A stretch of DNA of 64,000 nt from an uncultured Eubacteriales bacterium. GTDB lineage: Bacteria > Acidobacteriota > Aminicenantia > Aminicenantales > Aminicenantaceae. Under the pieces are notes generated by a model, which had not been told where the DNA came from, did no database searches, and worked only from the letters and a program-made list of their open reading frames with translations. The stretch's first letter is position 1, and each line of letters opens with the position of its first letter. Below are positions 3,976 through 63,148 of this stretch, in pieces. A program made the position numbers and the translations under genes. The stretch covers positions 1 to 64,000 of the forward strand of contig CAYNVQ010000003.1 of NCBI GenBank assembly GCA_964400735.1. The letters run 5' to 3'.

Positions 3976-5178
3976 ATGCCATCCTATCAATGGAAAGGAA
4001 AAAATCGTTACGGCGATGTGGTGGGAGGAGTCCGAGTGGCACGGAGTGTCGAGGATTTATCCAGAGCCCTTCAGAGGGAACAGATCACCGTTATGGACAT
4101 TTCCGCTGCCAGAAAAAAATTCGAGATTCCTTTTCTCCAGAGGCAGAGGGTTAGACTGAAGGATTTGGCGATTTACAGCCGACAGCTTTCGGTTTTAATC
4201 GATGCTGAACTCCCGCTGATACAGAGTCTCAACATTCTAGCTGAACAGACCAAGAATAAGTATTTCAAGCATGTTATCAAAGCGATCAGGGAGGACGTAG
4301 AGGCAGGTTCGACCTTGAACCAGGCTAAGCGCAAGTTTCCCAGCGTTTTTGACGACTTGTACTGTAACTTGGTGGCTTCGGGTGAGCAAAGCGGCTCGTT
4401 GGATATCATGTTGAGACGATTGGCTGAATACCTGGAAAAAGTCGTGAGGTTGAGAGCCCAGGTCCGCCAGGCCATGATCTACCCTTCGGCCGTTTTGTCG
4501 TTTGCTGTGTTGGTTGTGGTTTTCATGTTGTGGAAAGTCATCCCGGTTTTCGCCTCGATCTTCCTGGAACTGGGAGCTGAGCTTCCTTTCTTGACGTCCA
4601 TTGTTTTAGTCCTGAGCAATTTCATACAGAAGTACATCCTGTTGCTCGCCATCGGTTTGGTTGCACTTGTTTTTGGCTTCAGGTACTGGAGGAAAACGGA
4701 ATCGGGCCGAAGAATCACGGATAAATTTCTTCTTCGGATGCCTCTATTTGGAAAATTGCTCGAGAAAGTCGGTCTGTCGCGCGTAACCCGAACCTTGAGC
4801 ACGCTGCTTTCAGGAGGAGTCCCGATGCTGGAGAGCCTGAAGATCACCTCATCGACCGCGGGAAATGTCATCGTGGAAGATTACATCATGCAGGCCAGGA
4901 CTATGGTAGCCGAGGGGACCAGCCTAAGGGATGCTTTCAAGGAAAAAGGGCGGTTTCCCTTTATGATGATCCAGATGGTGGGCGTGGGAGAGGCCACTGG
5001 CACATTGGATGAAATGCTGGCCAAGCTGGCCGATTTTTATGATGAGGAGGTCGAAACCTCGGTGGCCTCCCTGCTATCGATTTTAGAGCCGATTTTGCTG
5101 ATTGTTGTGGGTGTGATCGTGGGATCGATCGTCGTTTCGATGTATCTTCCAATCTTCGAGCTCATGAAAAAGTTCTGA
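3976..5178 (+). CDS. pilC: Type IV pilus inner-membrane platform protein PilC (GspF family)
   Basis: 400 aa with duplicated T2SSF domains and three transmembrane segments. In synteny with pilB and pilT. Confidence 0.85.
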   Translation: MPSYQWKGKNRYGDVVGGVRVARSVEDLSRALQREQITVMDISAARKKFEIPFLQRQRVRLKDLAIYSRQLSVLIDAELPLIQSLNILAEQTKNKYFKHVIKAIREDVEAGSTLNQAKRKFPSVFDDLYCNLVASGEQSGSLDIMLRRLAEYLEKVVRLRAQVRQAMIYPSAVLSFAVLVVVFMLWKVIPVFASIFLELGAELPFLTSIVLVLSNFIQKYILLLAIGLVALVFGFRYWRKTESGRRITDKFLLRMPLFGKLLEKVGLSRVTRTLSTLLSGGVPMLESLKITSSTAGNVIVEDYIMQARTMVAEGTSLRDAFKEKGRFPFMMIQMVGVGEATGTLDEMLAKLADFYDEEVETSVASLLSILEPILLIVVGVIVGSIVVSMYLPIFELMKKF

Positions 5179-30260: not shown

Positions 30261-30591
30261 CCCTGGAATTCCCAACAGAGTTCCTCCAGATGTTGTTGTC
30301 CTTCTCGGCACCTGGTCAATCCGGGAACGTCCCAATCAAAGACTCTATAATTTATCATTGATAAAAAGCAAATATTGAAATAGTGGGGATTTCCAAATGG
30401 GACGCCCCCTCAAGTTATCCTCCCTGGACGTTTCAGGAAGGCGGGGTTAGGTTGGATCGGGGCCTTCCATACCTCCCCGGCATTTTTCTGCACCTTTATT
30501 TGCATTTGATTTTCCCTCACTTCGGGACAAAATCCAGCATTGCAAAAGGGGACTTCCACGTGCATAAAAGAATCTTTCGGCAAATTCGGTG

Positions 30592-60918: not shown

Positions 60919-61594
60919 AGAGCCTCTCCGTGATGCTGAGGAATTCGATGGAAAAATCTTCCATATCGGTGATGATCTCTTTGATCCTGTGAAGGTAATG
61001 GTTGTAGGCAATGACGGCCGGGATGGCGGCAAAAAGTCCGAGCGCTGTGGCGATCAGGGCTTCGGCGATTCCCGGGGCGACGGTTTGAAGGGTGTTCATC
61101 TCGGCTGCACTCAATTCGTTAAAAGCATCCATGATTCCCCAAACCGTGCCGAACAAACCGATAAAAGGCGTGACGCTTCCCGTCGTAGCCAAGAAATTCA
61201 TCATTTTTTCCAGTCGTGTCACTTCTTTATTGGAAGCTTTGATCAGCGCCCGGTTGATGCTTTCCAGCACGGACGGGGTTATGGAAGGTTTAGGGTTGGA
61301 TTTGGTGTGATAGGCCAGGTCCTTGTAGCCGGCGCGGAAGAGGGTTGCCAGAGGGCTCCCCTTGAATTTTTTGGCTGCCTCGTTGACCTCCAGAAGGTTC
61401 TTGCTCTTCCGGAATATGATAAGAAATTTCTTGGATTGGTTGGTTACGGCTTTGAGTGTATTTCTCTTGAAGAGAATGAGCGCCCAGGAGAAAATGGAGA
61501 AGAGAAGAAGCACCACAAGGACCAACTGCACGACTACACTGGCCTGCAGGATCAACTTGAAAACGTTCATCTTTCTTGTCATAAAAAGTAGCAT
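60908..61594 (-). CDS. tolQ: TolQ/ExbB/MotA-family proton channel
   Basis: 228 aa. Three transmembrane helices. MotA/TolQ/ExbB signature. Confidence 0.8.
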
Positions 61595-61627
61595 ATGCCA
61601 GGCATAAAGTCAATCATGATGGGTCAT

Positions 61628-61722
61628 GATAGGGACGTTCCATTCGGGGATATCCTATCCTGTAAGCATAATGTTATTATCGGCAGAATGGATAGGGTGT
61701 CCCCGAATGGAACGTCCCTATC
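61628..61722. repeat. Long near-perfect hairpin: 23-bp perfect outer stem plus an inner imperfect stem, about 33 bp in total, around a roughly 29-nt AT-rich loop
   Basis: gatagggacgttccattcgggga (61628-61650) is the exact reverse complement of 61700-61722. Inner pairing cctatcc/ggatagg. Located in the tolQ / trkH divergent intergenic region. Confidence 0.7.
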
Positions 61723-61843
61723 AACCGTCGATTGACAAAGAAGGAGAGAAGTAATAGATTGATGGAAATATCCTTGGAGGGATGGATGCCTGGACCTAGA
61801 GGAGTGCCCCATCAAAAGCGATAGAAGGTTCCAACCGGCCCAA

Positions 61844-63148
61844 TTGCTGGCGCTTAGCTTTGTAGGGACCATTTCCATGGGGGCTTTTCTGCTGCTTTTG
61901 CCCTTCAGCGTCAAGGCCGGACATATATCGTTTGTGGATGCACTCTTCACATCCACATCTGCCGTGTGTGTTACCGGCCTCATCGTCAAAGATACGGCCA
62001 CTTATTTTACGACCTTCGGGCAAATCGTCATCATGGTCCTCTTTCAATTGGGAGGGCTGGGAATCATGGCCTTCTCCACCCTTGTGTTACTGGTTGCCGG
62101 AAAAAAGATCTCCATTCAGGACAGGATCATCATCCAGCAAGGATATCATTATACATCGGCACAGAATGTGAAATCTCTGATCAAGAACATATTTATCTAT
62201 ACCTTGTTTATCGAAGGAGCTGGGACTCTTGTGCTGTTTCTGCACTGGCATAAAAAATTCCCAGGGATCAAAGGTTTTTTTTATTCCATTTTTCACGCGA
62301 TTTCTGCCTTTTGCAACGCAGGATTCTCGCTTTTCAGCGACAGCTTTATGTCTTTTCGGGGAGACATAATCGTCAATGTCACCATTGTCCTTTTGATCGT
62401 GCTCGGCGGCTTGGGATTCTTGGTACTTAAAGAAGGGCGGAAGAGCCTATTCAGCCGCCTGAAAAGAGAGAAGATAAAAATCTCCCTCCATTCCAAGATG
62501 ATTTTCGTTATCACCTTCCTTCTCATCGTCGTCCCGTTCCTATTCTTTCTGCTTTTCGAATGGAATAGATCATTGATGGGGTACACCCTGAAAGAGAAGG
62601 TGCTTTCTTCGCTTTTTCAGGTCATAACGCCTCGAACAGCAGGGTTCAATACCATGGACTTAAACACCTTGAGTTTTTCTGCTGTTTCCCTTTTGATTTT
62701 CCTGATGTTCATCGGCGCTTCCCCCGGATCCACAGGAGGTGGCATAAAGACCAGCACTTTCGGGGTCATTTTCGCCTTTATGAAATCCAGGATAGCTGCC
62801 AGGGATTCGGTCAGTATCTTCCGCAGAACGCTCCCGGGGCTGATCGTTATGAGGGCCTTTACGGTCGTGACTCTGAGTATCGGGGTGATTTTTCTTTCTT
62901 CTTTCATCCTCTTTATGATTCAACCCATGGTGTCCATGAAGCAAGTATTTTTCGAGGTGTTTTCCGCCTTTGGTACGGTGGGTCTTTCACTGGGGATCAC
63001 TCCTGAGCTCAACGATGCGGGAAAAATCGTGATCATCCTGACCATGTATATTGGGAGGATCGGTCCTTTGACCATGCTCTATGCCTTCAGCAGGGAAAAA
63101 GCTTTCGGAAAGTTCGAGTATGTTGAAGAAAGCGTGATGATCGGATAG
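61844..63148 (+). CDS. trkH: Trk/Ktr-family potassium transporter membrane subunit (TrkH/KtrB)
   Basis: 434 aa with an apparent TTG start. Multiple M-P-M repeats carrying selectivity-filter Gly motifs. Confidence 0.8.
   Translation: MLALSFVGTISMGAFLLLLPFSVKAGHISFVDALFTSTSAVCVTGLIVKDTATYFTTFGQIVIMVLFQLGGLGIMAFSTLVLLVAGKKISIQDRIIIQQGYHYTSAQNVKSLIKNIFIYTLFIEGAGTLVLFLHWHKKFPGIKGFFYSIFHAISAFCNAGFSLFSDSFMSFRGDIIVNVTIVLLIVLGGLGFLVLKEGRKSLFSRLKREKIKISLHSKMIFVITFLLIVVPFLFFLLFEWNRSLMGYTLKEKVLSSLFQVITPRTAGFNTMDLNTLSFSAVSLLIFLMFIGASPGSTGGGIKTSTFGVIFAFMKSRIAARDSVSIFRRTLPGLIVMRAFTVVTLSIGVIFLSSFILFMIQPMVSMKQVFFEVFSAFGTVGLSLGITPELNDAGKIVIILTMYIGRIGPLTMLYAFSREKAFGKFEYVEESVMIG

Follow-up and report, generated by a model that had tools for sequence, protein, structure and literature searches.

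REPINs (REP-BIMEs) are doublets of REP sequences that form hairpins and are mobilised by RAYT HUH transposases in Pseudomonas and the Enterobacteria. The cognate RAYT gene, which encodes a Y1 HUH enzyme, is usually flanked by REP repeats, and classical REP/REPIN populations amount to tens to hundreds of copies per genome. Imperfect intergenic palindromes of ∼100–150 bp are also known as the Correia elements (NEMIS) of Neisseria and the ERIC/IRU sequences of enterobacteria, which are frequently inserted beside or inside promoters and occupy a given orthologous site in some related strains but not in others. Structures of a different kind come into question upstream of potassium uptake genes, as K+ transporter operons are often controlled by c-di-AMP riboswitches. 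In its definition, a REPIN consists of two inverted REPs around a spacer (PMC3337134).

Here, we describe a palindrome in a 64,000-nt stretch of DNA, referred to below as the window, which TolQ homologues place in Candidatus Aminicenantes. The palindrome lies between the divergent genes tolQ and trkH, and we consider, with a probability of about 0.8, that it is one copy of a REPIN/MITE-like family of non-coding palindromic repeats of Aminicenantes, located upstream of both promoters and dispensable. The family resembles REPINs in that two inverted, conserved units of ∼25–34 nt surround a variable spacer and form a long hairpin, and in that it is strictly intergenic, often following stop codons or lying between convergent genes, and persists across lineages with decayed copies. 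It differs from them in its low apparent copy number, in the lack of a GTAG-type flank or of a RAYT gene beside the copies, and in its phylum and arm sequence, which are new. The Correia and ERIC elements are alike in size, imperfect symmetry, proximity to promoters and presence or absence at orthologous sites but have no sequence similarity to the hairpin family; moreover, Correia elements possess 26-bp terminal inverted repeats, a TA duplication and an IHF site, whereas neither a target duplication nor an internal protein site was identified here. The likeness to the ydaO/yuaA riboswitch (RF00379) is limited to the genomic theme of a position upstream of a Trk/Ktr-type K+ transporter operon; the window hairpin is a single stem that does not match the model, is situated upstream of the predicted promoter and is not conserved in orthologous leaders.

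Structure of the hairpin

The hairpin spans positions 61627–61723, a total of 97 bp, and is nearly perfect. Its left arm (61627–61660), which carries the family core AGGGACGTTCCATTCGGGGA, and its right arm (61690–61723) were delimited by an inverted-repeat search and the family alignment, and neither is assigned to a strand. The arms are 34 nt each, 94% complementary and separated by a 29-nt AT-rich loop (61661–61689, again without strand), which varies across the family but has a homologous counterpart in the decayed orthologue at locus L032 (see below). The 23-bp perfect core of the stem, GATAGGGACGTTCCATTCGGGGA, has exactly two occurrences, at 61628–61650 on the plus strand and 61700–61722 on the minus strand, where none is expected by chance, and the hairpin is the sole inverted repeat of 20 nt or longer within the window. 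Its two non-Watson–Crick pairs are G–T on the plus strand and A–C on the minus strand. Folded as RNA, positions 61610–61740 reach −78.5 kcal/mol compared with −34.2 ± 3.6 kcal/mol for shuffled sequences (z = −12.2), and the hairpin folded as DNA has z-scores of −9.4 for the plus strand and −9.0 for the minus strand. The covariance model of the family, R1, assigns 90.6 bits to the window copy at 61622–61728.

The initial annotation had described a near-perfect hairpin of ∼95 nt with a 23-bp perfect stem and an A/U-rich loop. The 23-mer count, the inverted-repeat search and the fold z-scores confirm the hairpin far beyond chance, and the loop, as read from the sequence, is ∼69% A + T. About 10 pairs beyond the 23-bp stem had also been claimed. 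In the fold, the 11 outer pairs (TCAATC…GATTGA) are largely the two inverted −35 regions of the divergent promoters and fall outside the element.

Divergent promoters and gene starts

Two sequence blocks that border the hairpin are conserved in nine of nine orthologous loci, and from their match to consensus and their conservation, we infer that they are promoters. The left block, AAAAGTAGCAyATGCCAGG..TAAAGTCAAT, corresponds to a predicted tolQ promoter read on the minus strand (61585–61613), with −35 TTGACT at 61613–61608, a 17-nt spacer and a TGn-extended −10 TACTTT at 61590–61585. The −10 matches the consensus at only three of six positions, and the promoter scan therefore omitted it. The right block, TTGACAAwG…AAGTAATAsATTG, is invariant, lies downstream of the hairpin and corresponds to a predicted trkH promoter on the plus strand (61732–61760), composed of TTGACA at 61732, a 17-nt spacer and TAGATT ending at 61760; in the scan, it matched the consensus at 10 of 12 positions. 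The hairpin is placed exactly between the tolQ −35 (61613–61608, minus strand) and the trkH −35 (61732–61737), its end at 61723 being 9 nt upstream of the latter. As far as promoter conservation can tell, the hairpin would thus be upstream of both promoters and in neither mRNA, and so absent from the trkH leader. The predicted 5′ untranslated region of trkH is ∼45 nt and varies between orthologues.

The start of trkH is probably a non-canonical, conserved AUC at 61811 rather than the first canonical start, TTG 61844. Orthologue alignment identifies a ribosome-binding site, GAGGAG, followed after 6 nt by this codon (61799–61813, plus strand). The ATC is common to all nine orthologues and the pattern [A/G]GGAG, 5–7 nt, ATC to eight of the nine; at L032, the ATC is kept and the ribosome-binding site is weak. 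In addition, coding-type conservation (RRFQPAQLL, with synonymous changes) extends upstream of TTG 61844. The lengths given to trkH by gene callers range from 416 to 470 aa. For tolQ, the start is most likely ATG 61570, which yields the 220-aa form chosen by most gene callers. Further in-frame ATGs upstream, at 61594 and 61582, are inside or before the predicted promoter with its −10 at 61590–61585. With these starts, the distances from the hairpin, earlier put at ∼35 nt to tolQ and ∼120 nt to trkH, become 57 nt and 88 nt, respectively.

The orthologous gap in relatives

The gene order trkA–trkH <> tolQ–tolR–tolA–tolB–pal is kept in relatives whose TolQ is 86–94% identical to that of the window. 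With all loci oriented like the window, we took the gap to be the sequence between the landmarks TAAAGTCAAT and TTGACAAAG; percentages in brackets below are TolQ identities to the window. The window gap is 117 nt and contains the intact hairpin. In two lineages, L034 (88%) and L026 (87%), the gap is only 20 nt and represents an empty site, and in L035 (87%) and L029 (86%), it holds 75–78 nt of unrelated sequence. Decayed hairpins are found in L032 (94%; 99 nt) and L023 (93%; 105 nt). These do not fold, with z-scores of −0.96 and −0.57 compared with −9.4 for the window, although they still match the family covariance model with 38 and 23 bits, respectively. In L033 (93%), the gap is 461 nt and the hairpin arms are split by a 348-nt MITE in the loop, while the 301-nt gap of L024 (90%) contains a MITE of the same kind and no recognisable hairpin.

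The comparison suggests that the hairpin was inserted into a gap that lies between conserved promoters and varies from clade to clade, and the insert moves the two −35 boxes from ∼21 bp to 118 bp apart. Because the promoters are kept whatever fills the gap, the hairpin would appear to be dispensable for the expression of tolQ and trkH. The orthologues with an empty site have diverged too far for the insertion junctions to be placed, and we saw no direct repeat at the edges of the window copy or of the other copies.

A family of palindromic repeats

Exact matches to the 20-mer arm core in species-representative genomes were found on three contigs of one MAG and at a contig end of one Candidatus Aminicenantes MAG, so that exact-core copies number at least three in a single MAG. 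Each of these four matches belongs to an imperfect hairpin of ∼100 nt, with an arm spacing of 48–51 nt compared with 49 nt in the window, and none is the end of an IS element. A phage or plasmid origin was rejected, as blastn of 61600–61745 against plasmid and phage collections gave no match and the 20-mer is absent from viral contigs. A degenerate two-arm pattern matched at 18 metagenome loci, which reduce to 14 distinct ones and give at least 14 unrelated intergenic sites on Aminicenantes-type contigs. A palindromic MITE or REP had been one alternative in the initial annotation, with occurrence of the palindrome at many unrelated loci named in advance as a refutation of the riboswitch idea and as the mark of a generic element of this type. 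Such an occurrence, with conserved arms and differing loops, is what we observe.

In a family copy, which measures ∼90–110 bp, a variable, AT-rich spacer lies between two inverted arms of 25–34 nt that follow the consensus GGGGACGTYCCATYYGGGGACACCC and the complementary sequence. The arms are conserved, whereas loops and flanks differ between subfamilies, the spacers accounting for 15–34 nt beyond the 29 paired positions. Since the search pattern fixed most of columns 11–29, arm invariance there is partly by construction. Among 17 distinct sequences, 89.5% of arm cells are paired, as against 30–51% when the partner is slid by one to three columns. Both sides have changed in 9 of 32 pairs, including inner pairs at which TAT/ATA is replaced by CGC/GCG or TGC/GCA, and the inner pairs with two-sided changes were not fixed by the pattern.

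All copies lie outside long open reading frames, between seven convergent, three tandem and two divergent gene pairs, some of them 0–16 nt from a stop or start codon. Their neighbours are unrelated housekeeping genes and include recA, hpf, an lptB-like ABC ATPase, glycosyltransferases, glnA (glutamine synthetase), an FGGY kinase, uvrC and acpS, together with an addA-like helicase, lpxI, NAD kinase, an sdhA-like (succinate-dehydrogenase-like) flavoprotein, a radical-SAM enzyme and AhpC/TSA; no flanking gene recurs. Pfam scans of 29 flanking open reading frames at 17 loci revealed housekeeping domains only and no transposase or RAYT beside the copies. Rfam searches of 17 family loci returned no family matches, and a literature search on palindromic sequences in Aminicenantes yielded CRISPR-related mentions only. 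With no literature report found and no Rfam, plasmid or phage match, the family is apparently undescribed in this uncultivated phylum.

The MAG CAYPGQ01 (L001, L002 and L004), labelled 'uncultured Eubacteriales', carries the repeats, and parts of its contigs recur without a difference in JGI metagenome contigs (L004 in L016 and L001 in L019). As the repeat otherwise tracks Aminicenantes, the label of this MAG may be wrong. At L014, positions 5030–5107, a different and shorter palindrome, TTCGGGGACAGGTACCGAATT/AATTCGGTACCTGTCCCC, adjoins a solo GGGGACGTCCCATT motif, which suggests a wider set of GGGGAC…GTCCCC palindromes in these genomes.

The window itself contains a second, decayed copy of the family at 30314–30418 on the minus strand, detected by arm blasts and by the covariance model (35.8 bits, E = 1.3 × 10−7). 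It no longer folds (z = −0.9 and −1.45), its loop is homologous to that of the MITE-borne subfamily described below, and a fragment of the associated MITE adjoins it at 30428–30470. The presence of this relic beside the one intact copy in the 64 kb implies that the genome holds more than one copy and that copies decay.

An associated larger MITE

In one subfamily, the hairpin occupies the centre of a 370–430-nt element. This element is a MITE, whose copies with or without the hairpin measure 350–430 nt and which ends in terminal inverted repeats of its own, GGTTCTCTTCCATTTTGTGTGGG and the complementary sequence. Copies of the MITE are present at L001 (6832–7263), L004, L010, L017 and L022, in the tolQ/trkH gap of L033 and at L024. 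Unlike the hairpin, this element has clear terminal repeats and, at some copies, flanking duplications of 8–9 bp, such as ACCTGGAA (L010) and TTCATAA(A)G (L004). The copies at L033 and L024 have no hairpin at their centre, and that at L033 is inserted in a hairpin loop. Nesting has therefore taken place in both directions, the hairpin within the MITE and the MITE within the hairpin. Part of the multi-copy spread of the hairpin is accordingly passenger spread within the MITE. The independent hairpins that lie outside the MITE, namely, the window copy and its orthologues, L005, L006, L007, L009, L012, L021 and L002, indicate that the ∼100-nt unit is a repeat in its own right.

Regulatory interpretations of the hairpin

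The proximity of the hairpin to trkH had led to the proposal that it is a ydaO-type c-di-AMP riboswitch, and we extended the question to any ligand riboswitch or leader structure of the trkH–trkA mRNA. The hairpin is extremely stable as RNA, and both imperfect pairs are G–U on the trkH-sense strand. Nevertheless, the check proposed at the outset, an Rfam covariance scan, run here on 61400–62000 at E ≤ 10 with permissive filters, matched neither ydaO (RF00379) nor any other riboswitch model relevant to the hairpin; the weak matches, MIR807 (30.8 bits, cut-off 113) and mir-144, are to generic models of long hairpin miRNAs and fall far below their cut-offs, and a single chance match to Glutamine-II was outside the hairpin. 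At the gathering threshold, the whole 64-kb window returned two tRNAs only. Two tRNA genes open the window, at 1–54 and 501–574, the first truncated by its edge. As the initial annotation had itself remarked, a single stem is unlike the pseudo-symmetric multi-stem ydaO fold, and a perfect stem of this kind offers no ligand pocket. The hairpin, moreover, ends 9 nt upstream of the −35 of a promoter kept in nine loci, and so outside the 5′ untranslated region; the orthologous trkH leaders are without it (L026, L034, L029 and L035) or have it in decayed form (L032 and L023), and elsewhere the same hairpin adjoins unrelated genes. We regard a riboswitch or leader role as having virtually no chance of being correct. 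Almost as little credence attaches to a bidirectional transcription terminator or mRNA-stabilising hairpin. Seven family copies do lie between convergent genes, some of them 0–16 nt from stop codons, and REP-type hairpins at such sites are terminators or stabilisers in other bacteria; in the window, however, tolQ and trkH both point away from the hairpin, leaving nothing to terminate, as had been recognised from its position, and an intrinsic terminator was rejected for this orientation and for the lack of a T-run or any terminator-like site at the hairpin. Transcription of the element alone, whether into a small hairpin RNA or into a cis-antisense RNA, is very improbable. A minus-strand promoter-like match in the right arm and loop (GGGACA at 61703, 16 nt, GATAAT ending at 61676) points toward tolQ, most arm mismatches in several copies are G–U on one strand, with a strand difference of 4–10 kcal/mol, and Correia, ERIC and other bacterial palindromic repeats carry promoters or are transcribed. 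Against this, the internal σ70-like match is weak (9 of 12) and situated in the non-conserved loop, the region contains two promoter-like sites where shuffled sequences predict 1.1, and many copies are perfectly symmetric. The G–T versus A–C strand bias was set aside as a sign of an RNA role because the number of independent copies is too small and the direction is inconsistent inside individual copies. An integron attC site was rejected, as inspection by eye revealed neither RYYYAAC/GTTRRRY cores at the boundaries nor an array of cassettes. A retron msd and a CRISPR repeat were rejected from context, there being no array and no nearby gene for a reverse transcriptase or a Cas protein.

A role at the DNA level deserves separate consideration since the window copy is nearly perfect, whereas the orthologous copies at L032, L023 and L033 have decayed. 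In this lineage, the copy might have been co-opted to couple or insulate tolQ and trkH, either as a cruciform that absorbs the negative supercoils generated by divergent transcription or as a protein-binding site. It is placed exactly between the two −35 boxes, whose spacing it increases from ∼21 to 118 bp, and cruciforms are extruded more readily from a palindrome with an AT-rich centre. Set against the orthologues, the window copy has also changed symmetrically on both arms: the first pair is A–T instead of G–C, and there are extra outward complementary bases, TGATA…TATCA. At the left boundary, comparison with L032, L033 and L023 reveals a 10-nt tandem duplication at 61614–61633 on the plus strand (TCATGATGGG, 61614–61623; TCATGATAGG, 61624–61633), which may have extended the palindrome outward. 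Symmetric changes of this kind are the product of hairpin-templated strand switching, a quasipalindrome correction that is established as a route of mutation in bacteria; repair of this type predicts them equally well. We propose, therefore, that the perfection of the window copy would reflect hairpin-templated (quasipalindrome template-switch) correction, or conversion by other copies, and not regulatory selection. Relatives run the same promoters with 20 to 461 nt of unrelated gap sequence, which argues that no specific sequence is required, and no binding protein is indicated. Co-option is accordingly an improbable explanation, albeit less so than the RNA-based ones.

Discussion

The reading that we prefer is that of a non-coding palindromic repeat of the REPIN/MITE type. 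An ancestor of the lineage would have gained a copy in the ∼20-bp gap between the back-to-back −35 boxes of tolQ and trkH–trkA, and the family would have spread as a non-autonomous element, its folded single-stranded arms being recognised by an enzyme acting in trans. No target-site duplication is definable for the hairpin in the window or at the other copies, and no transposase or RAYT lies beside any of them; mobility is for this reason inferred from the distribution of the copies. The bases just outside the arms are variable (TATG, CTAG, ATTG, GTAG, TAAG and GATA), with no conserved GTAG-like tetranucleotide.

As to the route of spread, the family has the features that define MITEs, being small and non-coding with terminal inverted repeats and multiple copies at unrelated sites, and those that define REPIN structure, having inverted arms conserved across at least 14 distinct loci and variable spacers. 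At somewhat less than even odds, we favour a REPIN-like route by way of an HUH/RAYT-type transposase over a DDE route, because conservation is confined to the arms, the copies show no target duplication and the family persists across diverged lineages. DDE-derived bacterial MITEs are similar in being small, non-coding and multi-copy, with terminal inverted repeats and, here, reciprocal nesting with another MITE; they differ in that the hairpin family is essentially two arms and a loop, has no definable target-site duplication and showed no parental IS with the same ends among the exact arm-core matches in species-representative genomes. A MITE moved by a DDE transposase is to our minds the less likely of the two origins. 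It is plausible all the same, and membership of the REPIN class is tentative, given the low apparent copy number and the lack of a GTAG-like flanking signal. A bolder and unlikely version is that of an undescribed REPIN-like replicator of Aminicenantes, which a domesticated HUH enzyme would mobilise as a folded single strand and whose targets would be the tips of hairpins; the window copy would be kept perfect as a cruciform buffering the negative supercoils of divergent transcription. Targeting of hairpin tips would explain the reciprocal nesting with the DDE-type MITE.

Some observations count against the interpretation as a mobile repeat family. The copy number per genome looks low, with at least three copies in one MAG and one intact copy plus one relic in 64 kb, compared with the much larger populations of classical REPs and REPINs. 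Compared with the orthologues of sister lineages, the window copy has survived in far better condition, so that a function may have been gained here. In addition, many copies are passengers at the centre of the MITE, which explains part of the multi-copy signal without mobility of the hairpin.

As a type of feature, a palindromic intergenic repeat is ordinary. The practical consequence is that this hairpin, for all its position ahead of a K+ transporter operon, does not warrant annotation as a riboswitch or a regulatory RNA, and the same arms will yield similar false leads at other Aminicenantes loci. For an uncultivated phylum, the analysis defines a new family of palindromic repeats by a consensus and by a covariance model. 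It also provides a natural series at one promoter gap, in which the site is empty, intact, decayed or interrupted by a MITE, and this series is a possible marker for strain typing and for studies of the origin, decay and correction of palindromic repeats.
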